Source: Eledone cirrhosa
Taxonomy: Eukaryota
Length of the DNA stretch: 64,000 bases
Assembly: GCA_964016885.1 (NCBI GenBank)
Contig: OZ024747.1
Coordinates: 65,410,001 to 65,474,000 of the forward strand
Direction: 5' to 3'
Program-made: the position numbers and the translations under genes
Shown: in pieces, positions 5,156 to 54,280 of the stretch
Layout of the letters: every line of letters starts with the position of its first letter
How positions within the stretch are numbered: the first letter of the stretch is position 1
The notes under the pieces: generated by a model
The model's input: the letters and a program-made list of their open reading frames with translations, nothing else
What the model was told of the DNA's origin: nothing
Database searches by the model: none

Positions 5156-7285
5156 TCATCATCGTTTAACGTCCATCTTCCACGCTTGCATGGGTTTGGA
5201 TGGGAGTTTTCCCACTTGAGGCAAGATTGTTTGTCTTGCTCGTATAGGACTGTCTGGCGGGTTTTCTACGGCTCGATGCCCTTCCTGCCCTTCCTAACAC
5301 CAACCACGTTTACAGTGTGGACTGGGAGGTTTTTACCGTGTTACCTACACGGCCACATTACAGCGTGGAGTGTGTTTTTTTGTCGTGACACCTACACGAC
5401 CTCATTTGTTTCGGACTGGATGTTGTGGTACCAACATAACTTCACATTTAAGGGGGTGGTGTGGATGGGGTGGGGGTAGTGGGATAGGGGTGTATTTTTG
5501 TTAGAGGTGCCTACTGACTGTAGGTTTCGCTTTGTACTTAGGCAAAGCGGGTCTTCTGTATTACTGTGTAGCACCAAAGATCTTGGTCCAGTGACATTGT
5601 CTTGGGGAGGTGTAAGTGTGTGAGGTCGGAATTTATCAAGTCGTCCCAGGTTTTTCTGGGTCTGCCTACTCCGTGGCTACCGTCTATTTTTATCGCCCTG
5701 CACTTTTTTATACAGCTGTCGTCTTTCATGCGCATCACGTGACCATACCAACATAGTCTTCTCTCGAGTAAACAACATCTGATCCCTCTTATTCCTAATT
5801 TCTCCCTTAGTTCGTTTTATGCTTTGCCGTTCACGTATATTACTATTACACATCCAGCGGAGCATGCAAGCTTCGTTTCTCTCCAGTCTGCGTATATCCT
5901 CTGCACACAATGCCCAGGTTTCACTGCCATGTAACATTGCTGTTCATATGCAGGCATCATACAACCTGCCTTTCATTTTTAGAGAGAACCCTTTAGCGGC
6001 CAATAGTGGTATAAGCTCTGAACTTTTTCCATCCTGTTCCGACTCTAGCTACTGTACTTTCAGAGCACCCTCCCCCACTGCTGATTTTGTCACCTAGGTA
6101 ATGGAAGGTGTCCACTATTTCTATAGAACCATCTGGGCAATGGAATGAGCTAGTATTTTGTGGGCACTTGCTGCTACTTATTGCACCAGAGCACCGGCCA
6201 CATATAAAATCTATATTCTTAGTTAGCTTACCTGTGATCCCACTACATCTTTTATGCACCCATACTTTGTATTTGGGACATAAAATGGAGTTTCTGCCTA
6301 CTCCTTTCCTACACACTGAGCATGGCCATTTCCCAGATGGGACCGGTGCCCTATTTTCCTTCCTACAAACTAGAACTTTAGTCTTAGACAAGTTAATTTT
6401 AAGGCCTTTTGATTCTAGGCCATGCTTCCATGTTTGGAATTTCTTCTGTAGTTCAGCCATTGATTCAGCTATGAGCGTTAGATCATCTGCGTATAGAAGT
6501 TCCCATGGGCAGCCGGTCTTGAACTCCTCTGTTATAGCCTGAAGGGCAATAATAAATAGTAGGGGGCTAAGAACGGAGCCCTGATGAACACCAACTTTTA
6601 CGCTAAACTCTTCACTATATTCGTTGTTAATTCTAACCTTGCTGGCTGTTTCTTTATACATGGCTTGTATAGCTCTTACAAGCCATTCATCAACACCTAG
6701 TTTTCTAAGAGCCCTCCAGATAATGGAGCGGGAGACTCTGTCAAAGGCTTTCTCCAAGTCAACAAAAGCTAAGTATAGGGGTTTACTTTTAGCTAGGTAC
6801 TTCTCCTGTAGTTGTCGTACAATGAAAAGAGCATCTGTGGTACTTTTGCCTGACACAAACCCGAACTGCATTTCATCTAGGTCAATTCTCTCTCTGATTA
6901 GTTGTGCTATTACTTTTTCCGTGACCTTCATGACCTGGTCGATTAATTTAATGCCTCTATAGTTACTCCTATCTAGGGCATCTCCTTTACCCTTGTAGCA
7001 GTTAATGATAATGCTGCTATGCCAGTCCTTCGGAACGACCCTATTCTGTATGACTTGGTTTACTATCCGGGTGACCATAGTGTGTCCCACCATTCCAGAT
7101 GCTTTCAGCATTTCAGCAACTATTTCCGAAGGCCCAGCCGCCTTATCCGTCTTCATATCTTTGATTGCCCTACTTATTATACTACCTTCAACTAGCAGTG
7201 CTGTTCCCTCTATTGGATCGATGTGGGGGAAACTGTCTTTCTCCCATTTATTCTCCTATATATATATTCTCCCATTTATTCTCCT
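5153..7285 (-). mobile_element. 5'-truncated RTE LINE (RT pseudogene, ORF 5993-7156)
   Basis: DLEKAFD, GVHQGSVLSP and YADD motifs; frameshifts near 6020 and 5815; (GAT)n tail; inserted in (TA)n. Confidence 0.95.
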
Positions 7286-7310
7286 ATATATATATATATA
7301 TATATATATA

Positions 7311-8056
7311 TACTCTGGGGTTCTTTTCCCCATCTGAGTGCTAAAGCTACAGACCGATTCTGCATTCGTTAGCTTGGCCGTGTTCTAAAGCTTTGTTAAT
7401 GTTGTACTAAAATTTGTATTTACTCCTAGAATTAACGATTAACTGATTAATTTAATTAGATGATTCTATTGAATGATTAATTGTTTATGTTTGTTTGATA
7501 ACTTCTGGTTGAGTGCTTAATTCAGTTTGTCTAAAGGGATTCATCCCTTTATCTCAAATTAGAATTCACCGCCTAAGCGGAGGTTACTTCCCTTGGAGAA
7601 AACCACGTGTCTGTGGCGAAATTTAAAGCTACTACATGCCCGCTCAGGCTAAGAATGAAAGACTTGTTGAAGAAGGAAATCCTGTGTTCTGTCGTCAAAA
7701 ACCATTATATTGCAGACTCCTGCAATCGGAATTTGTCGATCCTGGATTTCCAGGAACTTAGCACTGATGTTGGGTGCTGTATGTGATGTATATTGTGTGA
7801 TATATGATGTACATTATATATTTTGCATTCAGCCTCACCGCTCTGTCCGGGTCAGTATAAAATCTTTTCCTGGGTCCTGTATTTTCGTTGCTCTAGTGAT
7901 GCAGCTGGACTGTCGACCGCTATATCTGATTTGCTAAGCTGTCTGAACGTATTGTTATTACTCTGGGGTTCTTTTCCCCATCTGAGTGCTAAACCTACAG
8001 ACCGATTCTGCATTCGTTAGCTTGGCCATGTTCTAAAGCTTTGTTAATGCTGTACT

Positions 8057-8060
<4 letters not shown>
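7311..8060 (+). repeat. Unclassified element with about 100-bp terminal direct repeats (7311-7412, 7959-8060)
   Basis: Near-identical direct repeats; (TA)n flanks; related sequence at 17335-17500 (-). Confidence 0.6.
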
Positions 8061-8643: not shown

Positions 8644-8837
8644 ATATATATATACATACATACATTATATATAATGTTTCATCATCATCATCATCATCAC
8701 CGTTTTACGGAACAGGTTTGATTTTGAAATTTAAATTTGTCCAAGCACTACGGCCATTGCCAGTACAATTTGTTTTTGTTGATTTATGATGTATTATCTT
8801 AAGTCATGATAGGCAAACTGTAATATTATTATGTGTA

Positions 8838-10549
8838 TCATCATCATCATCATCACCGTTTTACGTCCGTTCTTCCACGCTAGCATGGGTTAGACGGGTT
8901 GTCCTGTTGTGGGCAGTGTCTGGTCGGCTGACCATGCCTTGCTCATACAGGAACTGATCTGGCTTGATTTCTACAGCTGGATGCCCTTCCTAACACCAAC
9001 CTCATTTACAGTGAGTGCTGGGTGCTTTTTCGTGGCGCCTACACGTCCACTTTACAGTGTGGGCTGGGTGCTTTTTTGCCGTGGCACCTCCACGACCACC
9101 TTGCGGTGGGGGGGGGGGCATATTGTTTATATGCTTCAGCATGTACCCATGGGAGGTCGGGTACCCTGTATTACTGCGTGACGCCAGAAGTCACGGTCGT
9201 GTGTCATTGACTTTGAGAGGTGTAGTTGGGTAAGGTCGGCTTTTATCACCTCATCCCAAGTCATCTTGGGTCTCCCCACTCCGCGGTTTCCATCAACTTC
9301 TAGTGCTCTGCACCTTTTTATGCAGCTGTCATCCTTCATACGCATCACATGTCCATACCAGCGTAACCGCCTCTCCTGCACGCAGCATTTGATTCCTCTT
9401 ATGCTCAGTCTCTCTCTCAATTCATTTATGCTTTGTCGTTCACGTATATTACTGTTACACATCCATCGGAGCATGCAGGCTTCGTTTCTCTCTAATCTAC
9501 GTAAGTCTTCCACCTTCAGCGCCCAGGTCTCACTACCATGCAACATCGCTGTTCGGATACACGCATCATACAGTCTGCCTTTCATTCTGAGGGAGAAGCC
9601 TTTTGCAGCTAGCAGTGGTAGTAGTTCCCTAAACTTCTTCCATCCCGTTCTTACCCTAGTTATTGTACTTTCTGAGCACCCACCTCCGTTGCTAATTCGG
9701 TCACCTAGGTAGCAGAAGCTGTCTACTGTTTCTACAGGGCCCTCCCAGAGATTGGTGGTACTTGTTTCCTGTGGCTGTTTGCTTGCTGTTTCAGCACAGC
9801 TGCTGCATGTGAATCCTACATTCTTAATTAAGCTTCCTGAGATCCCGCTACATCTCTTGTGTACCCATTGTTTGCATTTGGGGCAGAGAATGGAGTTCCT
9901 ACCTACACCTTTCCTACATACTGAGCAAGGCCATTTCCCTGAGGGGATCTGGGTTCTGTTTTCTCGTCTACTTACAAGGACCTTAGTCTTTGTCATGTTG
10001 ACTTTGAGGCCCTTTCTCTCTAGTCCCTGCTTCCAGGTTTGGAATTTATTCTCTAGTTCTACCATAGATTCAGCTATGAGTGCGAGGTCATCAGCATACA
10101 GGAGTTCCCATGGGCATCCGGTCTTAAACTCCTCCGTTATTGCCTGCAGGACTATGATGAACAGGAGAGGGCTAAGAACAGAGCCCTGGTGGACCCCAAC
10201 CTGTACGCTAAATTCCTCGCTATACTCATTGCTAATCCTAACTTTGCTGACTGCTCCTCTATACATGGCTTGTACCGCTTTCACAAGCCATTCATCTACT
10301 CCTAGTTTTCTAAGATCCCACCAGATTACTGCACGTGGAACTCTGTCAAAGGCTTTCTCAAGGTCGACAAATGCCAAGTAGAGTGGCTTACTTTTAGCTA
10401 GGTACTTTTCCTGTAATTGTCTCACAAGGAAGAGGGCATCAGTGGTGCCTTTCCCTGGTACAAACCCAAATTGCATCTCGTCTATATTCACCCGGTCCCT
10501 AATCAGCTGTGCTATAACTCTTTCTGTTACTTTCATGACCTTTCATGAC
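8838..10549 (-). mobile_element. Young 5'-truncated RTE LINE; ORF 9136-10536 is open to its stop (RT, PHD-like finger, C-terminus)
   Basis: 466-aa uninterrupted ORF with YADD and RWYGHV; 3'UTR and (GAT)n tail. Confidence 0.95.
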
Positions 10550-10931
10550 ATATATATATATATATATATATATGTATTCATCATCATCATTTTTTTAATA
10601 CCATTTTCCCATGCTTTCATGGGTTGCTCAAGTCCCTCTCAGCATGGCATCTCTCCACTCATTGCATTCCTTGATCATCTCTGTGAGTTTCAGCAATTGG
10701 AGGTCAGCTCTAACAACCTCTGTCCAGGTCTTCCTTGGTCTACTTCATCTGTTAGGGATTGGGTATGATGTACCAATCGGGGTCCATCAAAAACCTGGTT
10801 GTGGCTTGTTTCCATGGTCACACCTCCACCACTCAGGCTAATTGAGTGACTTTCATCCCTTCATGTCTAAGATCATGTGCCCTAGCTCTGACAATGCAGC
10901 CTTCATGCTTAGCATTTAGAAATTGATCAAG

Positions 10932-18227: not shown

Positions 18228-18899
18228 TTCATTGTTTATGCAGATTCAATATGTAATTTTGTTGAAATTCCTTGCTTCAGGACACATATTGCTAGGCATA
18301 TTTCAGTGCGAAAGGTGATCAGCGCATTATTATTATTATTATTATTACTATTATTATTATTACTACTACTAAATACACATATATCATCATCATATACATA
18401 TATCATCATACATTTTCCATGCTAGCATGGGATATATGAATTGTCCTGTTGTGAGACAAATCAGATCAGATGACCGTGTCTTTCTCATACAGAACCATTT
18501 CTGGCTTGGTTTCTATGACTAGATGCCCTTCCTAACGCCAACCATGTTTTCAGTGTGGACTGGATGCTTTTTATCATGGCACCAAAACACACACATACAC
18601 ATATAGATATATATATAACACATGCAAGAATGGAAAAACAGATGTAAAACATGGATACATATATCATATGCATGTATATATAAGAAGAAAAAAGAATTGG
18701 CAAGTCATATATTCACTAGAATTTCACAAACATGGAAGCATTTGCCTGCATCATACCAACTGACATAATTGTGTCGACATCTGATGATGTCACACCAGTG
18801 CCGATTGCTGTTGTAATGATTACATAACAGCTCCACACTGATATCACTGAAATACATATAATCCAATAAATATGATTATATAACATCCGCTATAATGCT

Positions 18900-18978
<79 letters not shown>

Positions 18979-18990
18979 CATATATATATA

Positions 18991-21855
18991 TGAAAACAGG
19001 GAGAAAGAGACGATTATGAGGAAGAAAAATATTTTTTTTTCCTTTTTTGTTTCTCTCTCTTATTTCTGGGTTAGAAAATGATTAAAACGAAATGTTTTAC
19101 TTTGTGTGAAGTGTTAAGGTATTAGTTGATTTATTTATTATTTAACAATGGCATTTATTTATCTATTTATCTATTTAATTATTGTCTATTACCGGTTTCA
19201 GCATATATATGCATTATCAAATGATAGTGAAATGTATTAGTGTGGTGTCGCACATGTTAAACAGAAGGTGCAGAAAGAATAATGTTATATACAAACAAAG
19301 TTTCACATGTGGTGCCTGCTATTATGGGTCTTAATTTAAGGTCATCAGGAGGGGCTATATTGATGTAAACGTCTGTGGCTTGCTTGCAGGCCCTGCCTAT
19401 TACTTCGCTTTTGTGTGTCTTGGGGATACCGTAGAAGAGGCTGGTTCTGCTTTTGAAATTGGTGATGTAGTTGTATTCCTTGTCTGTAAGGCCTTCTTTG
19501 TAAAGGGTTGTTAGGGATTTTAGGTTTCTCATTATTTTCTGTTGTGTGTAGTGTTGGGCCTTTTCATAATATGTTTGGTTTTCTAGAGTTGAGAGTACTA
19601 GAGTTGTGTAATAATCTGTCTCCACATGTGAAACCCACATGTGAAACCCACCGCCTAAGCAACTTCCTAGATATTCTGCTTAAACCTTTCCTAAAACATA
19701 TAAAAAGCTTCATAAGGGATGACCTTGACATGCTCAACCACCTCCCAACAACACTCAATAACAAACATACCCTATTAGTAACCTTTGATGTCATCAATTT
19801 ATATTCCAATATCCCACACAACCTAGGTATAGAGGCAATACAATTCTGGATGGAAAATTTCCCTAGTGAACTTCCACAGCGCATCCCTAAAGAATTTGTG
19901 TTGGAGGGACTCAAATTCATCTTGGAAAACAATTTCTTTGAATTCAATGCCAAATACTACAGACAGAAATCTGGGACTGCCATGGGCACGAAAGTGGCCC
20001 CCTCATACGCCAACCTTGTCATGGGATATTTGGAAACCATTCTCTACCGCAAAGTTCTAGACAAATACGGCAACCACTTCTACCAACACATAGAAAAGAA
20101 CTGGAAGAGATATCTGGACGACTGCTTCATCCTCTGGCATGAAAGTATAGAAAGACTGTTTGAGTTCAAAACCCTTCTGAATGGGCTCAACACTAACTTA
20201 CAATTCACAATGGATTACAGCCATGAACAACTCCCTTTCCTTGACATCCTCATCAAGAAAACAAGCAACAAAATAGAAACAGACATATGATTATATAACA
20301 TCCGCTATAATGCTTATTTCATATATATACTACAAACCCACAGACTCCAAACAATACCTTCCATTCAACTCGTGCCACCCTAGACACACCAAAATGGCAA
20401 TTCCTTATAACCTAGCCTGAAGGATCTGCACAATAGTTTCAGATAAATACACATGCTACACATGACTAGAAGAATTAAAAAACACACTTATCAGCAGAAA
20501 CTAGCCACCATCCCTAATCACCAATGGATTCCAACGTGCCCTAAAACTAGACATCGAGGAACTCAGACACCCCAAACCCAGGAGTGAACCGCAACAAAAA
20601 TCTCTACCATACATCTCCACACACAACCCCCTCAACAATGAGGCATTCGACACCATCCTCCAGAACATTCCTTTACTAAAAAGAGACCCAAGAATGAACA
20701 ATATCCTCCAAACACACAACATCATAAAGAGCAAAAGACAAACCAAATCCATAAAAAACATCCTCACACAAGCCAAAATCCAACAAACCCTCACAATGAA
20801 CCCTACAGTAATAAAATGCGGAAGGCCCAACTGTGGCATATGCATAACTCTAATAGAAGATTCAACATTCCATTTTAAACAAGGACAACGTTTCACAGTT
20901 AAACACAACTTTACATGTGCATCTGAAAACCTTATCTATGTTTTGTCATGCTCAGGTTGTCAAGAGCATTACATAGGACAGACAAAAAACAGCCTCCGTC
21001 AACGTATGACCGTCCATAAATCACAAATTAAAATACAGGAATACAGAAAGATTGCATTTAGTGAACATATCGCCAATTGTGCTCTCAACCAACATCCAAA
21101 CTTTAAAATTTTCCCCATTTACAAATTCATAGACAATGCTACTTTCATCCAACGTACCAATAAGGAAACACATTTTATTAATAAATTTCAACCACTACTC
21201 AACGCCCTAAAAATCGGACCAATCTAAAACTGCAACAAACCATCAAACACTTACAAGAGTTACCTCCCTCACACCCTACTTAATCCTTTTTCTTAAATAA
21301 ATTAAATATCACCCAGCAAGAATTGCTTCCCCCTGCATATTAACTCTCTAAAAAGGGAAATCATATCAAACCACAGTCCACGGAACCATGGTTCAACTAA
21401 GCACTCTTGCGATATTAACACATTTTCAACTGCTTAACTTCAATGACTATGCTGGTAAATAACATTATTTTTTCTTCCACATTGACTTTTTACGTTCCAC
21501 ATTATGCACGTTTTTTTTTCCTTTTTCTTTTTTCTTTTCACTTCTTAAAACCTTGTTTGTATATAACATTATTCTTTCTGCACCTTCTGTTTAACATGTG
21601 CGACACCACACTAATACATTTCACTATCATTTGATAATGCATATATATGCTGAAACCGGTAATAGACAATAATTAAATATATAAATAGATAAATAAATGC
21701 CATTGTTAAATAATAAATAAATCAACTAATACCTTAACACTTCACACAAAGTAAAACATTTCGTTTTAATCATTTTCTAACCCAGAAAAAAGAGAGAGAA
21801 ACTAAAAAGGAAAAAAATATATTTTTCTTCCTCATAATCGTCTCTTTCTCCCTGT

Positions 21856-21860
<5 letters not shown>
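18991..21860 (+). mobile_element. Penelope-like element (RT and GIY-YIG) with inverted pLTRs, rearranged and defective
   Basis: RT motifs FDVINLYSNIP, GTAMG and RYLDD; GIY-YIG LIYVLSC...HYIGQT; inverted arms 18991-19298 and 21553-21860; in-frame stops after 20400; (TA)n flanks. Confidence 0.95.
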
Positions 21861-21887
<27 letters not shown>

Positions 21888-22139: not shown

Positions 22140-23328
22140 GTTCTTTGAGTCTCAGTCATTGATGTTAGTTAACTGGAAAGTTTGTTGAAATGAATATCAA
22201 GCCACTACCTGCAGCCTCAGATATTCAGGACGTATCCGGGGCGGGCCAATTTTCTTTAACCATCCCTGGAAACTCTTTGACATAGTACCTAGTGCGCCTA
22301 TGACAATCAGGACCACTTTGACTTCATGGCAGTTCCAAATCCTTTTTACCTCCCACTTTAAGTCCTGGTATCGGTTAATTTTCTCCCTCTCCTTCTCTTG
22401 CACTCTCGTGTCGAATGGGCAGGCCACATCCACAATCAGGCACGATCTTTTTTCCTTGTCCAAAACCACCAGGTCAGGTCTATTGTGTTCCAGTTTCTTG
22501 TCCGTCTGTATCCTAAAATCCCACAGCACCTTCACCTGAACGTTTTCTTTCACTCTGGCTTATGCTCATACCACTTCTCAGAATGTGGTAAATTGTTTAC
22601 TTTGCATAGGTGCCAGTGGATCATCATGTCTCCAGCCTTTATAGTGAGTCTGGGCTATGTGTTTACACTCGGATACAATGTGAGCCACAGTCTCCTCTCT
22701 CTCTCCACAGATCCTGTACAGTGGGCTAGCCTCCTCCTTGTAAATATGGTGTTTCAGCCACTTCGTTTTGAGGGCCTGCTCTTGCGCAGCCATTAGCATT
22801 CCTTCTGTAGCCTTTTTAAGGTCTCCTTTTTTCAACCAGTTCCATGTCTGTGGATCTCTGAATTCAGTTTTCTCAAAGAAGGTACTATGAAGGGATTTTT
22901 CATGAAGGCTGCTCTTTCTCCTTGTTGTTATTTCCTCCTTGGACATCCCCTGGTCTATTGTCCTCTCCTTCAGTACAATTCTGAGCATTGGCTCCTTACT
23001 ATCAGTCACGTATTTGTGTAGGTTGTTTTTCTCCATCTGAACACAGTCCTCTATGCTGATAAGACCTCTTCCACCTTCAGATCTCCTTAAGTAGAGTCTA
23101 TTGACATCACTCCTCTTGTGGAACATGTTGTAGATAGTTAATAGCTTCCTAGTCTTCCTATCCATTTCTTTTTGTTCAGCAACATTCAATCTCAGAATTC
23201 CCGCACTGTACCTAATAATAGACACAGCTCGGGAATTTACTGCACTTATGGCATTCCTACTGTTCAGATGTGACTAATACGCTCCTTACTCTCCGAATGT
23301 ATTCAGATCTTATCAATTCCTTCATTTT

Positions 23329-23332
<4 letters not shown>
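22140..23332 (-). mobile_element. R4/Dong-clade non-LTR 3' fragment (restriction-like endonuclease)
   Basis: C..C..ETVAHIVSEC knuckle remnant and LWDF...HNRPDLVV..D motif; (ATT)n on both flanks. Confidence 0.88.
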
Positions 23333-29569: not shown

Positions 29570-30290
29570 TTACACCAACACAAAGGTGACATCATACCAT
29601 CATTACACCATGACAAAAGTAAAACCACACCATACCATCAGCACAACCACACCCCCAACACAAAGGCAAAACCACACCATACCATCAGCCCAACCACACC
29701 CCCAACACAAAGGTAAAACTACACCATACCATCAGCACAACCACACCCCCAACACAAAGGTAAAACCACACCATACCATCAGCACAATCACACCCCCAAC
29801 ACAAAGGTAACATCACACCATACCATCGGTACAAAGGTAACACCACACAATACCATCAGCACAACCACACCCGCAACACAAAGGTAAAACCACACCATAC
29901 CATCAGCACAACCACACCCCCAACACAAAGGTAAAACCACACCATACCATCAGCACAATCACACTCCCAACACAAAGGTAACATCACACCATACCATCGG
30001 TACAAAGGTAACACCACACAATACCATCAGCACAATCACACCCGCAATACAAAGGTAAAACCACACCATACCATCAGCACAATCACACCCCAACACAAAG
30101 GTAACATCACACCATACCATCGGTACAAAGGTAACACCACACACTACCATCAGCACAACCACACCCCCAACACAAAGGTAAACCCACACCATACCATTGG
30201 TACAAAGGTGATACCATACCATCAGCACAACCACACCCCCAACACAAGAGTAACATCATACCATCGGCACAAAGGTGATACCATACCAAT
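29570..30290. repeat. CA-rich compound minisatellite
   Basis: Repeating acaaaggtaa..caccataccatcagcacaa units. Confidence 0.85.
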
Positions 30291-30879
30291 GTCTCTAATT
30301 AAAAACATCTAAACAAACTGTAGTTTATATTGGAACTATGAAACTAATCTTAATTACATGCTCACACATACAGACAGAAACACATAGAGACCGAGACACA
30401 CATACACACATACAAACAGACACACATATACACATACAAACAGACACACGTACAGACACATACAGACACGAACAAATACAAATACATAGACATACTGACA
30501 CACACAGGCTGACACATACACATACATGGACGTACAGACATACATAAAGATATACATACACATAAAGATACAGACACACGCATATACATAGACATACAGC
30601 CACACACACACACACACACACACAGACACATTCACATAGACAGACATACAGACCAATACACACACACAGGCAGACATCTATGCTGGAAATATCAATCAGA
30701 TCTTTATTAAACATTAACGTATTTGATATCTTAACAAAAACAACAGTGCACATACACACACACAGTGGAACACATACACACACAGAGACATACACACATA
30801 CATATAGACAATTTCCACCATTTTGAAATAAAACAATCATATGAGTGCAAAAATGATTATATTGATATTTTTGGAAAGT

Positions 30880-32640
30880 TTTAACAAGTGTACTCTGTGA
30901 TATAGTCTACACTGTATATAGTTTTAACAAGTGTACTCTATGACATTATCTACACTGTATATATTTTAAACAAGTGTACTCTATGACATTATCTACACTG
31001 TATATATTTTAAACATGTGTACTCTATGACATTATCTACACTGTATATAGTTTTAACAAGTGTACTCTATGACATTATCTACACTGTATATATTTTAAAC
31101 AAGTGTACTCTATGACATTATCTACACTGTATATACTTTTAACAAGTGTACTCTATGACATTATCTACACTGTATATATTTTAAACATGTGTACTCTATG
31201 ACATTATCTACACTGTATATATTTTAAACAAGTGTACTCTATGACATTATCTACACTGTATATATTTTAAACATGTGTACTCTATGACATTATCTACACT
31301 GTATATATTTTAAACATGTGTACTCTATGACATTATCTACACTGTATATACTTTTAACAAGTGTACTCTATGACATTATCTACACTGTATATATTTTAAA
31401 CAAGTGTACTCTATGACATTATCTACACTGTATATACTTTTAACAAGTGTACTCTATGACATTATCTACACTGTATATATTTTAAACATGTGTACTCTAT
31501 GACATTATCTACACTGTATATACTTTTAACAAGTGTACTCTATGACATTATCTACACTGTATATATTTTAAACATGTGTACTCTATGACATTATCTACAC
31601 TGTATATATTTTAAACAAGTGTACTCTATGACATTATCTACACTGTGTATACTTTTAACAAGTGTACTCTATGACATTATCTACACTGTATATACTTTTA
31701 ACAAGTGTACTCTATGACATTATCTACACTGTATATACTTTTAACAAGTGTACTCTATGACATTATCTACACTGTATATATTTTAAACAAGTGTACTCTA
31801 TGACATTATCTACACTGTATATATTTTAAACATGTGTACTCTATGACATTATCTACACTGTATATATTTTAAACAAGTGTACTCTATGACATTATCTACA
31901 CTGTATATATTTTAAACAAGTGTACTCTATGACATTATCTACACTGTATATACTTTTAACAAGTGTACTCTATGACATTACCTACACTGTATATACTTTT
32001 AACAAGTGTACTCTATGACATTATCTACACTGTATATATTTTAAACAAGTGTACTCTATGACATTATCTACACTGTATATATTTTAAACAAGTGTACTCT
32101 ATGACATTATCTACACTGTATATACTTTTAACAAGTGTACTCTATGACATTATCTACACTGTATATACTTTTAACAAGTGTACTCTATGACATTATCTAC
32201 ACTGTATATACTTTTAACAAGTGTACTCTATGACATTATCTACACTGTATATATTTTAAACAAGTGTACTCTATGACATTATCTACACTGTATATATTTT
32301 AAACAAGTGTACTCTATGACATTATCTACACTGTATATACTTTTAACAAGTGTACTCTATGACATTATCTACACTGTATATACTTTTAACAAGTGTACTC
32401 TATGACATTATCTACACTGTATATACTTTTAACAAGTGTACTCTATGACATTATCTACACTGTATATATTTTAAACAAGTGTACTCTATGACATTATCTA
32501 CACTGTATATATTTTAAACAAGTGTACTCTATGACATTATCTACACTGTATATATTTTAAACAAGTGTACTCTATGACATTATCTACACTGTATATATTT
32601 TAAACAAGTGTACTCTATGACATTATCTACACTGTATATA
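30880..32640. repeat. 43-bp tandem array (about 41 copies)
   Basis: Unit AACAAGTGTACTCTATGACATTATCTACACTGTATATATTTTA; highly homogeneous. Confidence 0.97.
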
Positions 32641-33434: not shown

Positions 33435-34058
33435 TAACAGTAATATACGTGAACGACAAAGCATAAAGGAATTGAGAGAGAGACTGAACATAAGAGGAAT
33501 CAAATGCTGTGTGCAGGAGAGGCGGTTACGCTGGTATGGACATGTGATGCGTATGAAGGATGACAGCTGCATAAAAAGGTGCAGAGCACTAGAAGTTGAT
33601 GGAAACCGCGGAGTGGGGAGACCCAAGATGACTTGGGATGAGGTGATAAAAGCCGACCTTACCCAACTACACCTCTCAAAGACAATGACACACGACCGTG
33701 ACTTCTGGCGTCACACAGTAATACAGGGTACCCGACCTCCCATGGGTACATGCTGAAGCATATAAACAATATGCCCCCACTCCCCCCACCGCAAGGTGGT
33801 CGTCGAGGTGCCACGGCAAAAAAAGCACCCAGCCCACACTGTAAAGTGGACGTCTAGGCGCCACGAAAAAGCACCCAGCACTCACTGTAAATGAGGTTGG
33901 TGTTAGGAAGGGCATCCAGCTGTAGAAATCAAGCCAGATCAGTTCCTGTATGAGCAAGGCATGGTCAGCCGACCAGACACTGCCCACAACAGGACAACCC
34001 GTCTAACCCATGCTAGCGTGGAAGAACGGACGTAAAACGGTGATGATGATGATGATGA
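33435..34058 (+). mobile_element. RTE 3' fragment nearly identical to 8838-9460
   Basis: ORF 33472-33756 matches the C-terminus of ORF 9136-10536. Confidence 0.92.
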
Positions 34059-34063
34059 TACAC

Positions 34064-35108
34064 ATAATAATATTACAGTTTGCCTATCATGACTTAAGAT
34101 AATACATCATAAATCAACAAAAACAAATTGTACTGGCAATGGCCGTAGTGCTTGGACAAATTTAAATTTCAAAATCAAACCTGTTCCGTGGACAGGTTTA
34201 AACCCTAAAATCCAAATATGTTTCGAATAATGAAAAAGTGGAAGAAAATACCGCATTTTGATCTCCTCAGCAAGCACTATAAAAATTGGTATGTTCCACT
34301 TCAAAATATTTAGGAAGACTGTTTAGCGCACGAGGTAACGTCATGCAGTTATCCAGTGTCTAGCTAGCCTCATACTCGTGCTGCTAGAAATAACAGCCGT
34401 TTGTATGGGGCTAAAATCAGCTCAACGAAGGAGCAGTGAAAAATCAATAATAATGAGTTCTATCTAGCTAACTTGGTCATTTACAATACAAACATAAATA
34501 TGAGGATATTTGTGTTTATCAAATATATTGATTTATGTTAACCTATATTCACGGCTCAGAAATACTCTTTCTTTCTTTGAGCTATTTCATTGTAAATGAT
34601 CGCCTGAGATTTGAACTCATTATTATTGATTTTTCACTGCTCCTTCGTTGAGCTGATTTTAGCCCCATACAAACGGCTGTTATTTCTAGCAGCACGAGTA
34701 TGAGGCTAGCTAGACACTGGATAACTGCATGACGTTACCTCGTGCGCTAAACAGTCTTCCTAAATATTTTGAAGTGGAACATACCAATTTTTATAGTGCT
34801 TGCTGAGGAGATCAAAATGCGGTATTTTCTTCCACTTTTTCATTATTCGAAACATATTTGAATTTTAGGGTTTAAACCTGTCCACGGAACAGGTTTGATT
34901 TTGAAATTTAAATTTGTCCAAGCACTACGGCCATTGCCAATACAATTTGTTTTTGTTGATTTATGATGTATTATCTTAAGTCACGATAGGCAAACTGTAA
35001 TATTATTATTAGTATATTTCTATCTAGCTAACTTGGTCATTTACAATACAAACATAAATATGAGGATATTTGTGTTTATCAAATATATTGATTTGTGTTA
35101 ACCTATAT
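34064..35108. mobile_element. Penelope-like pLTR fold-back (arms 34064-34460 and 34613-35009) with duplicated tail
   Basis: 397-bp inverted arms; tail 35019-35108 repeated at 34459-34549; carries a hammerhead. Confidence 0.8.
34794..34927 (+). ncRNA. Type I hammerhead with extended stem II (mirror copy on - at 34146-34279)
   Basis: TAGTGCTTG-CTGAGGA-GATCAAA...TTTGATTTT-GAAA-TTTAAATTT-GTC-CAAGCACTA: perfect 9-bp stem I, palindromic stem III, GUC site. Confidence 0.75.
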
Positions 35109-38100
35109 TATACATACACATATACATACATATATACATACACACATATACATACATACATACACACACATATACATACATACATTAATTGTTTCTATTT
35201 TTGGCACAAGGCCAGCAATTACCCCAGTACATTACTGGTACTTTATTTTATCGACCCCGTAAGGATGAAAGGCAAAGTTAACCTCAGTGCGATTTGAACT
35301 CAGACCGTAAAGGGACGTAACTATGCCGTAAAGCATGGTGTCCGACCCTCTACCGATACTGCCAATCCACCGCCTTACATACATTAATGGAGTTTAGAAT
35401 GTTCATAAGAAATAATTTAGAGATAGATGGATATAATTCAATAATGTAGAATTAATTAAACTTGTAATTATCTTCATTACTAATGTTATTGAACTGAATG
35501 ATTAGTGTTGCTCACGTTCCATTAAGAGAAGTTCATGACATCTCTGATGACGTCAATGTTATTTAAACTCTGTTTGGACATTAATCTGGCTCTGGATTAA
35601 TTAGCAAATATATTTGTAACGTTGATTAATCTACATCTTGAACTGGAGAGCGAGTTCTTCCTGTGTCCATCAGCACATATATCCTATATGTTAGATAAAC
35701 ATTCCTTTGTGTCCATCAACACTGATATATCCTACATGTTAGATAAACATTCTAATACATTATCAACAGTTACTTTGGCTCCTAGAATTTCACTCCCATT
35801 GCTGATATTATTAATAGTGAAAGTAAAAGTGTATGCTGCATGTGCCATGATTTATGAGAGCAAGACATTGGTGATGACTGTGGAGCAACATAGAAGGATT
35901 GAGAGAATGGAAATGAAAATGATCTTTTTAGTGGTATGCCGAGCTTTGGGGAAGCCTGAGACCAACTGATTGATTTTATTCCCAAAAAAACTCAAATATA
36001 GGGCCTAATACAGAGAAATGTGAACAAGAAAGATATTTTAAATATGTAAAAATAGATGATACATGAAATAAATACTTCATTCAAATTGATTTAAAATCAA
36101 CCCTGTTTATTAAGCCCAGTTCCCAAAATAAGATCTGTCAGAAAACACTTCAACTACTTAATATTTTACATCAGCAGTGAGGAATTTTTTCAATACTGTT
36201 TAAACCCAGGTCGGTCAGTTGCTGTACTGGAAAAGATTCACCTGACAGTATAAAAATGTGACCCCAACATTGAATCTATTAATCCCACCACCTACCCACT
36301 TGCTCTGCTGCCCCTACTTCTTGTCATTTACCCATGATATACCTATTATTTTTCTTACCTACAACATCCTATTTCCACACTAGCCCCCATAGAGTAGAGG
36401 TGACTCTACAATCAAGTCTAAGACCAATAACCTCTCTAGAGCTGGTGTCATGAAAAATACACCCAGTACACTCTGTAACATGGTTGCTGATAGAAAAGGC
36501 ATTCACCCATAGAAACCCTGCCAAACAAAGTGTTAGAAGAACTCTTCTAATGTGTTAAAGACATGACATGACAACCTTTCTAGTGTTGGTGATTGACATG
36601 AAAAACACACCCAGTATACTTTGTAAAATGCAACAAGTCAGGAGAATTCTTGAGCTGCAGCTAAGACATGACAACCTCCACAGTGCTGGTATCATGATAA
36701 AATGCACTTGATAGAGCAAGAGAATGTATGTAAGCATAATGCAGGCCTCTGGTACATCTGAGTGGTCAGTAGCTCCACTTAAGTACTGACTTGATCTGTG
36801 AAGATCTGTTCAAACCTTGTTAACAGAGAAAAATGGACATTAAATAATGACAACGATTATAATGATACATACATATATATATACATACATATACATATAC
36901 ATACATATACATACATACATACATACATACATACATACATACAATCATCATCATCATCATCATCATCTATATATACATATGTGTGTGTGTGTGTGTGTGT
37001 GCTAAAATATATTGTGCATTAAATTACTAATATTTCTTTTCTATGACAACTCCATGTAGCAACATTTATGGCATAAAACACATTTCTCAGAGACTTCACA
37101 TATAAATCCAGAGAATGGAGAGATTGCAAGTTTTTCCCAAGATGGTAATATAAGAAAGACAGAAGAAAAGCAAACAGAAAGTTGATATTTTATAGACAAT
37201 ATTTCATAGAATGAAGGAATATTATATTTCTGTTTTCAATTTATGAAAACAGAAGCTACTAAAATAAAAGAAAAATGTTCTGCTTCATGAGGCATTTGAG
37301 GTTATTTAATAAATAAATATCAATTGTGAAGTTGATATTGTTCTTTTAAACAATTTGTTGTATCTAGTGACATATTTCAAGTTGTAGGAAAATATCATGT
37401 TGATAGTAGAGTTGTTTATGTTTTAAGAGGTAGTAGTTAGTCTTGATGTATTGATGTATTTTTTTATAAGATACAAATGGCTTATAGTCTATTGTTATTG
37501 CTGTCATAGTTGTCATGGTAGTTGCTGTTGTTTTTGTTGTCATAGTTGTCATGGTAGTTGCTGTTGATTTTGTTGTCATCATTGTCATTGTTGTTTAGAC
37601 TTAAATCTGCTATAACAGCAGATTTAAGATCAAAGATATGAATGAACCACCACATACATAGCCTATATTTTAGATGGTGGGAAAAAGGATTAAATATCGA
37701 AATAATCTCCACTTTGCCTTTTATTTGTTTCTGGAGTTGATAAAATAAAGGACCAGTCCAAGACAGTGGATTGGCAGAATTGTTACAGTGCATGATAATG
37801 GCCTTTGTGGCAATTGTAGTAATATTTTGCACTGTGAGTTCTTGGGTAGTAGATGTAGTCCACAATCCACTTTAATGCCACCACCCAGTTCTGGGGTGAT
37901 TTTAGCAGAATGTATAAGCATTCAGGTTAGGTTTCTTATTTGAAGGTAATTTCTCTCACCAGTCTCAGAAATGCCAATGAAAAATATAGAGCCATGGTCA
38001 CGTGATGCATTGGGATAATGATCTTTGGATGAAGAAGTACCAAGAAATCCTAATGAAAATGAGCTCTAATAGAATGGTGGGAGCAAGGAGAACCTAGACA

Positions 38101-42399: not shown

Positions 42400-43240
42400 A
42401 GTATATAAGACATTGGAAGTGTTGTAAGTGTAATACAACTGCTGTAAGTGTACTGTAACTGTGAAGGGGTGTAGAGACATTGGCAGTGTCACAGGTGTAG
42501 TGTAACTGGGAGAGGAAGTGTATAGACATTGGCAGTGTTGTAAGTGTAATATAACTGGGAGAGGGAGTAGAAACATTGTAGACATTGTATGTGTAATATA
42601 ACTGGGAGAGGGAGTAGAAATGTAGACATTGTAAGTGTAATATAACTGGGAGAAGGTGTGTAGACATTGTAAGTGTAATATAACTGGGAGAAGGAGTAGA
42701 AATGTTGTAGACATTGTAAGTGTAATATAACTGGGAGAAGGTGTGTAGACATTGTAAGTGTAATATAACTGGGAGAAGGTGTGTAGACATTGTAAGTGTA
42801 ATATAGCTGGGAGAAGGAGTAGAAATGTTGTAGACATTGTAAGTGTAATATAACTGGGAGAAGGTGTGTAGACATTGTAAGTGTAATATAACTGGGAGAA
42901 GGTGTGTAGACATTGTAAGTGTAATATAACTGGGAGAAGGAGTAGAAATGTTGTAGACATTGTAAGTGTAATATAACTGGGAGAAGGTGTGTAGACATTG
43001 TAAGTGTAATATAACTGGGAGAAGGTGTGTAGACATTGTAAGTGTAATATAGCTGGGAGAAGGTGTGTAGACATTGTAAGTGTAATATAACTGGGAGAAG
43101 CAGTAGAAACATTGTAGACATTGTAAGTGTAATATAGCTGGGAGAAGGTGTAGAAATGTTGTAGACATTGTAAGTGTAATATAACTGGGAGAAGGTGTAG
43201 AAACATTATAGACATTGTAAGTGTAATATAACTGGGAGAA
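42400..43240. repeat. 38/47-bp minisatellite with a 123-bp higher-order unit
   Basis: GTAGACATTGTAAGTGTAATATAACTGGGAGAAGG units; accounts for the repetitive ORFs at 42286-43291. Confidence 0.92.
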
Positions 43241-43917
43241 GACCCATAACTCACAATAGAGTTGTAGGGGCACCATCATGATACATGGCATATCACAGGT
43301 ATTTTAAACCTAACAGAGTCCATTCATCTCCTTGTCAGAACACAGCAAATTTCTTCCAGAGAGGGACAGAAAGAAAGAGAAAAAGAGAGGGAGGGAAATT
43401 AACACCAATACTAAACTGGTTCTTTATTTATCAATCTTGAAAATATGAAAGGCAAAGTTAACCTCATTGAGATTTGAACCCACAGTGCAGTGAGCCAGAA
43501 CAATATTCCAAGACAGTTTTAATGTGTTGCTCTAACAATTCTTCCAATTCACCGCATGAAGTGTATATAATGTGATGAAATATGAGTCAGTCAAACTCTG
43601 ACGTTTATTAAAAGAGGAAACATTATTTAGTAGAATGTCTTTATACAATCATAGCTGGTGCTTTAAACCAACAATAAAGACACTGTAAAGTACAAGTATA
43701 CTATGGGCAAGTCTGCTTGTGCACCATGGTGTGTGTGTCTGCGTGAGTGTGTATTCTCATATAATAGGTGCCAACAGGAATGTGTTATTTAAAAGTTTGA
43801 TTCCTAACTATGTAGCTTCAGGCTAAACCAGTTAAGTACCTTCTATTATAGCCTCAACCTGACCGATAACTTCTGGAAGAATTTTGGTCAATGGAAACTA
43901 TGCAGAAGCCCATCATA

Positions 43918-45755: not shown

Positions 45756-45789
45756 TACACAGGTGTGTATGATGTGTATAGAAGATTAT

Positions 45790-46150
45790 ATTAATAAAAG
45801 GAATTCCAACTTTATCTGATTTACTTGTTTTATTTACAATCCTTTAAAATTATAATGATATTATAATGAAATAGTATGGTAGAATATTAAATGTTAAGTG
45901 TTAATTAAACAAGTACTTTCATGCTTCCGCAATCTTCAGGTTCACATTCAGTGGTGACAATCGAAAATTGCAAACTTGACTGTCACCACTGAATTTGAAC
46001 CTGAAGATTGCGGAAGCATGAAAGTACTTGTTTAATTAACACTTGACATTTAATATTCTACCATACTATTTCATTATAATATCATTATAATTTTAAAGGA
46101 TTGTAAATAAAACAAGTAAATCAGACAAAGTTGGAATTCTTTTTATTAAT
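45790..46150. mobile_element. pLTR-like hairpin (170-bp arms, 21-nt loop) with hammerhead at 45995-46035 (+)
   Basis: Near-perfect inverted repeat; TTGAAC-CTGAAGA-TTGC/GCAT-GAAA-GTAC-TT-GTTTAA. Confidence 0.75.
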
Positions 46151-47209
46151 CTATATATATAAAACTGTGGTTGTCTGTCTGTCTATCGATTTTTGGCACA
46201 CATCTCCTCTTAGAATCTCTCACGGAATTGCACCGAAATTGCTATACTTGTACATTGAGCCCTAGCGAAGACATCGGAAAAAAATATTTCAAATTGGCCC
46301 ACCCTATGTGACGAAATCGAATATAATGTATCGATTTTTGAGCGTAAGTTATCAGTTATTTCCCTTTGTTCTGTTTACATTGAGCGTCTTACGTAAAAAA
46401 ATTACACTGGCTTTCTCAGCGTTTAAAATGACATTAACACAATACACGAACAGTTGTCGAGCCAGCAAAATATTGACCTGCAAAATTCATCAGTTCGAAC
46501 ACTAAGCTTCCGTTTTGCTTCATTTCCATTTAAAAGCATTTTAAAACAATATTTTTACCTGCAAAATTCATCAGTTCGAACACTAAGCTTCCGTTTTGCT
46601 TCATTTCCATTTAAAAGCATTTTAAAACAATATTTTTACTTGAAAACAAGTCTATTTAAAGACTACGTAAAACAAGCAAATATTTCGTCGTTAGGCGTGC
46701 AGACAGACAGTCGTGCAGACAGACAGTCGTGCAGACAGACAGTCGTGCAGACAGACAGTCGTGCAGAGAGGTGATATAGGCGTGCAGACAGACAGTCGTG
46801 CAGAGAGGTGATATAGGCGTGCAGACAGACAGTCGTGCAGAGAGGTGATATAGGCGTGCAGACAGACAGTCGTGCAGAGAGGTGATATAGGCGTGCAGAC
46901 AGACATAACTGATAATTTGGTTACGCTAATGTTTTTCTCTGCGTTGCAGTGTTTACATTTTCGATCTTTGTTAATAAATAACCAGTGCAGTTTCTATCCC
47001 CAGCATCCTCTTTTGTTATAACATTCGGGTTATCGTTATGTTTTCTTAACTTCATAAGGCATATTGTTGGTTGAGGGAATATTAATCAAAAACACCACAT
47101 GCAAGTCTGCACAGTAGACACTACAGTTTTTAAGCCAAGAAAGAAACTTAACATTGTAACTTTAACACAGCTACTGAGCGACCCCGAGCAACGCCGGGCT
47201 TTACTGCTA

Positions 47210-51215: not shown

Positions 51216-51583
51216 ATATACGATATTAATAAATGGAAACTATATTTATCAAACCATATTTATTTCATTATACATATTTCAGGGATACCAAATTAAATTA
51301 TGGTATGCCTTCATCAGACAAAATACAATATATAACTGTTTTACAAATAAGCTTTGACGTACCCTTTTAAAATGCAACCATTATTTTTGGAAGCTATCCG
51401 GATGGCTTCCAAAAATAATGGTTGCATTTTAAAAGGGTACGTCAAAGCTTATTTGTAAAACTGTTATATATTGTATTTTGTCTGATGAAGGCATACCATA
51501 ATTTAATTTGGTATCCCTGAAATATGTATAATGAAATAAATATGGTTTTATAAATATAGTTTCCATTTATTAATATCGTATAT
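51216..51583. mobile_element. Loop-less 368-bp palindrome of a pLTR-like sequence
   Basis: Centre at 51399/51400; CTGATGA...GAAA core at 51482-51522; tail 51584-51670; (TA)n flanks. Confidence 0.75.
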
Positions 51584-54108: not shown

Positions 54109-54280
54109 CCATTAGGATCTTTATCAAACTGGTACAATAAAGGGTAAGAGCCTTCGTTACAAATTACAAATGTTTTATAAGCCGAGTTCTTCAGGTGAAC
54201 GGAAGGGAATCTTAATGTGGCTGAATCTTGGAGTGAATACTGGGGAATAAAATTTCGGTGTTGGACAGGGAAAGTGTTGC
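54109..54280 (-). CDS. CFAP65: CFAP65-like exon B (NTFPVQHRNFIPQYSLQDSATLRFPSVHLKNSAYKTFVICNEGSYPLLYQFDKDPN/G)
   Basis: tttcag acceptor and gtaagt donor; 172 nt, phase 1 to 2; IPQYSL motif as recalled from CFAP65. Confidence 0.9.

Follow-up and report, generated by a model that had tools for sequence, protein, structure and literature searches.

The ORF of a Penelope-like retroelement in the window (the whole stretch of 64,000 nucleotides analysed here) is interrupted by a 40-bp copy of the element's own left flank. The flank capture is real, non-random and mechanistically readable, and by analogy it would add a Penelope-like case to a kind of retrotransposition scar already known from human LINE-1 (L1). 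It probably arose (at a probability of roughly 0.6) as an integration-coupled templated insertion, left by an aborted 5' join within one messy integration. The element spans positions 18992–21859, between (TA)43 and (TA)14, and the locus is made up of the following features.

18870–18914, plus strand: donor, left flank plus the opening 9 bases of the (TA)n tract, with no other copy in the window except the insert
18906–18991, no strand: left (TA)n target tract, 43 units with two C interruptions
18992–19303, minus strand: left arm, an inverted copy of the element's 3' end, with a hammerhead-like motif at 19220 (minus)
19300–19624, minus strand: inverted ORF piece, approximately residues 144–252 of relatives, 106 codons free of stops
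19622–19651, plus strand: inversion junction, with a 13-mer twice in tandem (19622–19634 and 19635–19647) and once inverted (19300–19312)
19635–21227, plus strand: forward, 5'-truncated ORF from approximately residue 248, with RT and YLDD at 20111
20285–20329, plus strand: templated insertion, composed of ATAT (20285–20288), 36 donor-only bases and ATATA (20325–20329)
20418, 20463 and 20502, plus strand: extra stops in the forward ORF
20817–20843, plus strand: CX4CxxC linker in the forward ORF
20931–20978, plus strand: GIY-YIG with CxxC in the forward ORF
21228–21859, plus strand: 3' UTR or pseudo-LTR region, its last 312 bp being the right arm, with a hammerhead-like motif at 21631
21860–21887, no strand: right (TA)n tract, 14 units

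The two 40-mers at 20289–20328 and 18874–18913 are fully identical, as an earlier sequence-only reading had noticed, and the exact match grows by 4 nt to the left and 1 nt to the right into 45 bp (20285–20329 = 18870–18914; BLAST E 6e-17). The copies lie in direct orientation, 1415 bp apart. The 32-nt core that is free of microsatellite has 2 occurrences in the 64 kb at up to 3 mismatches, two matches were obtained in 0 of 100 shuffles, and the chance of such a donor–insert match in the window is approximately 1e-13 (order-2 Markov). Within the 64-kb window the donor flank is single-copy and the 40-mer has two copies only; the donor, which the sequence-only reading called host DNA, is putatively so. 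An assembly or amplification chimera would likewise give a copy of 100% identity, and inverted arms and (TA)n tracts are hard on assemblers (PMC8557442, available text); however, the 4–5-nt junction overlaps should be far too short for a graph mis-join and an out-and-back switch in exact register would be required, so that we regard an artefact of this type as barely credible.

The product, its junctions, their microhomologies and its orientation are directly observed. The left microhomology is ATAT (4 nt), as the sequence-only reading had it for both ends, whereas the right one is in fact ATATA (5 nt). The same element pentamer serves both, the pre-insert element sequence holding only one local ATATA, which is the insertion point, and the net gain of 40 bp consists of 36 donor-only bases plus the duplicated ATAT. 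The donor had been placed directly left of the (TA)n tract; it does adjoin the tract, but its final 8–9 bases belong to it, being the opening bases of 18906–18991. The insert splits ETDI from YYKPTD and shifts the frame, as had been described: its junction makes a TGA at 20288–20290 and the ORF goes on in a different frame. Since the frame is continuous once the 40 bp are removed, and ETDIYYKPTD is ungapped in all 117 site-spanning relatives (best 120 of 556 listed), the piece is foreign to the ORF. The expectation that relatives lack the insert thus holds for distant proteins (best 71%), as distinct from family copies.

The ORF that received the insert carries RVT_1 (E 4e-08) and GIY-YIG (E 2.1e-07) domains, both over the Pfam cut-off and in one frame when the insert is omitted, and so consists of a single ORF with RT followed by a C-terminal GIY-YIG. 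A CxxC lies between GIY and YIG (20931–20978), and His-bearing motifs at 21006 and 21057, which we take to be the two His of CCHH, complete the pattern. The RT–EN linker, a Neptune/Nematis feature of the form CX2-5CxxC, lies at 20817–20843, and a looser linker pattern was found in 82 of 82 long relatives bearing a YIG motif among the matches listed. The copy is also inverted and 5'-truncated in a way that gives inverted terminal repeats. According to the available text of PMC8557442, EN+ Penelope-like elements have RT and then a C-terminal GIY-YIG, a CX2-5CxxC linker and a CCHH-type motif, and inverted 5'-truncated copies giving inverted terminal repeats are described for Penelope-like elements. 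By these criteria the element is assigned, on its motifs rather than by placement in a tree, to the Neptune/Nematis-type EN+ Penelope-like elements, with which it shares the order of RT and GIY-YIG, the linker, the CCHH-type motif, an inverted 5'-truncated copy and a (TA)n target (PMC8557442, in the part available); in contrast to them, the truncated copy here has no direct pseudo-LTR tandem. Protein searches listed 240 relatives, with a best identity of 68% over the full query and 71% over part of it; those of the element ORF that are named come from octopus and bivalves, the window itself being probably cephalopod, and none of the 240 is a same-family copy. A search for a hammerhead ribozyme in the element gave 0 Rfam hits at the gathering score and otherwise nothing above chance level in the 3' UTR or flank; scanning with a hammerhead core pattern picked up a variant motif in both arms, stem I of which looks imperfect by eye.

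The left arm (18992–19303) is the inverted counterpart of the right arm (21548–21859) over 312 bp, with 5 differences in 311 bp (against 21548–21858). It is joined to the inverted ORF piece by GTTT (19300–19303), and this piece ends where the forward ORF starts, the breakpoints overlapping by 13 nt; the 13-mer at the inversion junction includes an 8-nt palindrome. Three further switches of 3–5 nt are thereby found in the element: from arm to ORF (GTTT), at the inversion junction (probably CCA) and in the 13-nt slip (CCAC). An inverted piece reaching residue 252, a forward piece from approximately residue 248 and a 13-nt overlap are the marks of twin priming. Among L1 twin-priming inversions, 17% have an internal duplication, with a median of 22 bp (10.1101/2024.08.27.596794, available part), and the likeness to L1 twin priming and its switching variants (same paper and PMC11702581) extends to the inverted upstream ORF piece that overlaps the forward start and to microhomology at the junction. 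The two cases differ in that the inverted cDNA here would have begun with a 312-nt stretch of 3' end sequence before it reached the internal point, which produces the inverted arms that are typical of Penelope elements. Any target site duplication is masked by (TA)n on both sides.

The element copy is dead, being 5'-truncated and inverted and containing three stops besides the TGA of the insert. At 20418, 20463 and 20502 these stops stand where, among the matches listed, 108 of 114 aligned relatives have R, 112 of 113 have R and 111 of 112 have Y, respectively. The three stops mean that there has been time for later repair, unless the source carried the defects beforehand. Both stops at Arg positions (20418 and 20463) are TGA, and the forward ORF is devoid of CGA codons. 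Each arm has 4 counted CpGs, with no CpG among the arm differences; this may reflect a source RNA that was defective from the outset, or homogenisation of the arms.

We infer the following order, timing, strand and enzyme for the capture. The endonuclease would open the (TA)n tract, and first-strand cDNA (the bottom strand), primed at the right end, would grow approximately 1.5 kb leftwards to a 3' end of TATAT at 20329. This end would pair with the left target end's (AT)n top strand, the usual joining partner of a 5'-truncated copy, and be extended by 36 nt into the left flank. The cDNA would then come off and re-pair through ATAT at the same element pentamer, with 40 nt looped out, and copying would resume for approximately 650 nt, up to residue ~248. 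The left target end would prime a second cDNA copying the element's 3' end, which would jump to just upstream of the stop of the first cDNA and copy approximately 320 nt, and joining of the two cDNAs would produce the inversion. Either the element's RT or, on the same integration intermediate, a host polymerase (Pol theta, for instance) could be the enzyme, with the same product in both cases; capture during second-strand synthesis would leave that product too.

The geometry of the capture bears on this scheme. The donor lies against the target tract on the 5' side and in direct orientation, which is one of four possible read-outs of the two flanking tracts, and extension from the left target tract would give exactly the observed piece, with its 5'-side flank and direct orientation. 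Alternating-AT runs of at least 5 nt number 7 in the forward element, one of them being the exit point, and 14 of its 2181 positions offer such a 5-mer; before reaching this 5-nt run the cDNA would have passed four AT runs of 6–8 nt in the 3' UTR. Return microhomology is common, at least 4 nt being available at 50 of 300 flank positions. Only 9 of the 86 nt of the tract were copied, so either the tract was short at that time or the end landed near the tract edge. We estimate that the geometry, through the 1 in 4 read-outs, favours integration over later repair only ~3–4-fold, a small gain, since the nearest two (TA)n tracts would attract whichever end reads ATATA. The arms differ at 5 of ~312 sites, or 1.6% (95% interval 0.5–3.7%), and even an insert as old as the insertion itself would keep 36 unmutated bases with P 0.56 (0.26–0.83); for this reason arm divergence cannot date the capture.

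A break arising after integration would offer another route. The element would have been broken at ATATA, possibly by the (TA)n-targeting Penelope endonuclease, and microhomology-primed synthesis off the nearest (TA)n edge, 1.4 kb away, would have been followed by rejoining, with ATAT duplicated. A staggered cut would account for the exact duplication of ATAT and make a return to RNA unnecessary; the nearest long AT runs are the flanking tracts, and the element has aged, with three stops at residues kept in relatives and no CGA codon remaining. The product is short, AT-rich and flanked by microhomology, resembling the Pol theta scars of PMC7165422 (available text), with which it shares an AT-rich direct-repeat copy of the flank and short microhomologies (4 and 5 nt here), and the iterative slips of Pol theta resemble the element's 13-nt duplication. 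However, the available text of PMC7165422 places Pol theta templates in mammalian cells typically within 30 bp, distal ones making up <0.1% of repair, and typical distances at 30–50 bp, whereas the template here is 1415 bp off in the final DNA; the copied 36 nt also contrast with Pol theta tracts, which rarely exceed 10 nt. A Pol theta scar on an intact chromosome would have its template within 50 bp of the break (same source and part), against the 1415 bp observed, so that Pol theta fits only if both ends were adjacent, as in an integration intermediate. Later repair would in addition have had to yield this product from only one of the four tract read-outs, and we consider it unlikely. The earlier proposal that the polymerase left its template, copied the flank and returned is well supported as a microhomology-guided jump and back. 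Its timing at integration is favoured rather than demonstrated, on the grounds of the side and orientation of the donor, the three other 3–5-nt switches, the distance of 1.4 kb, atypical for Pol theta, and a second capture in an inverted-arm insertion.

Five inverted-arm structures are present in the window: 357–1066, the Penelope element, 34058–35015, 45787–46153 and 51216–51583. Four of the five bear hammerhead-like motifs in both arms, accounting for 8 of the 11 hits of the scan with the hammerhead core pattern, and the arms of these hammerhead-bearing structures are unrelated to one another. In 357–1066 the arms are identical at 250 of 255 positions, with hammerhead-like motifs at 552 and 871, and the segment between them (609–808) matches the inverted 1372–1571 at 199 of 200 positions. 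The outer copy holds a 153-nt open segment ending TTTTCAG / GTAAGT; the inner copy is without the donor site, which marks the outer copy as the likely original. The segment 609–808 is a second local capture in the window. The sequence-only reading had called the 40-bp insert a second, independent event of this kind; 609–808, taken from 1372–1571, is a candidate for the other, although it may not be the event that was meant. The capture sits at an inversion junction and not mid-cDNA, and so does not show a return to template.

Sorted by eye, 14 local high-identity pairs (tandem repeats masked) comprise 4 terminal, 3 dispersed and 4 tandem pairs and 3 orphans. All three orphan pairs have a copy in an inverted-arm insertion, such structures covering 8% of the window; one pair is the 40-bp insert and one is ambiguous, and the excess, which amounts to one independent and unambiguous case, argues weakly against later repair. 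The ambiguous pair belongs to 34058–35109, in which the arms are identical at 398 of 403 positions and a 92-bp direct repeat is present (34458–34549 = 35018–35109, 91 of 92). We set 34458–34549 aside as a mirror-image capture, since the repeat stops right at an (ATAC)n tract and could equally stem from twin priming of tandem RNA (~560-nt monomers), with no host DNA involved. The palindromic 45787–46153 and 51216–51583, whose arms both bear hammerhead-like motifs and which hold no captured DNA, are probably non-autonomous Penelope-type elements.

The structure at 34058–35109, which illustrates how a repeat internal to an element can imitate flank capture, also bears on whether the donor is host DNA at all. 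The donor might instead belong to the insertion, as a tail or 3' transduction located at the left arm's outer end, or to a repeat, such as a retroposon with an (AT)n tail that inserted twice and of which it would be the 3' end. Both copies end in TTTC(AT)n, as does the element's own end; optional tails of 30–40 bp are a hallmark of Penelope (PMC11167929 and PMC8557442, both in their available parts); and the flank 18740–18915 folds better than shuffles, with a z of -3.9 on the minus strand. Against such an origin, the flank 18720–18905 has no further copy in the 64 kb beyond the insert, the 240 listed relatives match nothing outside 19150–21300, which leaves no ORF start beyond the tract, and two separate insertions would have to share a 5' end down to the exact base. 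We hold this origin to be improbable; were the donor a tail or transduction, the event would still be a jump onto the left end during integration. The fold over 18740–18915 is a long hairpin (z -3.9 on the minus and -2.5 on the plus strand). Pfam, Rfam and plasmid searches gave no match to the donor flank, and PDB hits were at chance level only. In Atlas, one frame of the flank gave nothing and the other a lead to Helicase_C (0.90) in which no more than 149 features were shared. A single hit among 1.84 billion proteins was rejected as the sum of 14 three-bit repeats.

Sequence signals in the surroundings suggest that a minus-strand gene harbours the element in one of its introns. Open segments that resemble exons and are marked by strong splice signals lie at 54280–54109 and 1522–1370, both on the minus strand. 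CFAP65, the sole PDB hit for 54280–54109 (E 0.15), is only a lead to the identity of the host gene; 1522–1370 gave no homolog in protein searches and no PDB hit. The piece could accordingly have been reverse-transcribed through a template jump from host intron RNA of this apparent gene, or from a read-through transcript. The exon-like segments carry GTAAGT donors, and the other capture (609–808) ends 2 nt before the donor site of exon 1522–1370, which may hint at a host pre-mRNA template; a template jump from a read-through transcript has been suggested as the source of long inserts in the Penelope ORFs of rotifers (PMC3846280, available part). A minus-strand RNA, however, would template the top strand only, which is the second strand in the forward ORF; the identity of the host gene is weak; and a candidate 90-nt exon beside the donor was dropped, as Pfam, Atlas, PDB and protein searches gave it no support. 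We judge an RNA template very improbable.

The favoured capture during integration has its nearest parallel in the templated insertions of L1, in which a short genomic template beside the site is likewise copied into a retroelement insertion. In the available text of 10.1101/2024.08.27.596794, 22 templated insertions were found among ~3,600 solo L1s, with templates usually shorter than 250 bp and no more than 15 bp away from the site, and the proposed route has the cDNA leave the RNA and pair with nearby DNA; three L1 templated insertions in cultured cells were ascribed to end processing (PMC11702581, available part). The size and duplication seen in L1 recur here, with a template of 36–45 bp and the original still in place. 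The L1 template lies within ~15 bp of the site; here the donor runs into the target tract, which was cut somewhere within what are now 86 bp. Unlike L1, the element belongs to another retroelement subclass (GIY-YIG Penelope-like) and has a (TA)n target, and the captured piece lies 650 nt inside a first-strand segment with exact resumption, although mid-element L1 cases may exist beyond the available text. R2 transgene insertions show annealing of cDNA to upstream target DNA and snap-back synthesis (PMC11371274, in part).

Penelope elements of Adineta vaga have foreign ORF inserts and host DNA between pseudo-LTRs, acquired via template jumps aided by simple repeats (PMC3846280, available text). 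Those inserts are 0.9–1.5 kb long, often in frame and present in several copies, whereas the insert here measures 40 bp, disrupts the frame and has as its donor the DNA now flanking the same copy. Literature titles and abstract openings, with subscription papers mostly outside the search, contained neither own-flank capture nor twin priming for elements of the Penelope-like type, the match within PMC11167929 being a phrase of its methods. What follows first-strand priming in these elements awaits validation according to the available part of PMC11167929. A copy that records an aborted opposite-end join, an in-register return and a twin-priming-like inversion yields countable predictions on the side, orientation and distance of captured DNA, which could be counted in any genome rich in Penelope-like elements. 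A broader reading, advanced only tentatively, is that both target ends prime Penelope-like cDNA and that the ends of the growing cDNAs sample nearby target DNA again and again. The RT would go from RNA to DNA and back to RNA in register, local flank capture (2 of the 5 inverted-arm insertions in the window) would be a frequent, diagnostic by-product, and inverted arms would come from twin priming plus a jump, not from self-priming on antisense RNA. If true, the unsettled late steps of Penelope integration could be read from genome sequence alone. Being one dead copy, apparently intronic, the element has no evident function.

Slippage at joining is not special to the Penelope elements here, since the 5' junctions of LINE copies with (TA)n are also duplicated: the terminal duplication comprises 19 nt with a further 9 nt of TA at 7239–7312, and 10 nt at 10524–10577. 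These two 5'-truncated, RT-bearing LINE copies have minus-strand ORFs at 5993–7255 and 9136–10542, with RVT_1 and a weak PHD match. A LINE-like fragment at 22189–23330 (minus-strand ORF 22578–23273, weak zf-RVT match) lies 300 bp right of the element. The segment 8707–9141 is an inverted copy of 33751–34189 (435 bp, 433 identities), composed of a dispersed repeat and the first 130 bp of the 34058 arm, and is accompanied by a 29-bp direct repeat at 8681/8837; it is possibly a read-through retrocopy, and the 433 identities rule it out as an independent family member. A unit of ~750 bp at 7313–8059, with direct terminal repeats of 100–115 bp and no hammerhead motif in the scan, lies between two (TA)14 tracts. 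A 43-bp minisatellite of 41 copies at 96% identity occupies 30879–32640, and more arrays are present at 29613–30288 and 42538–43241.
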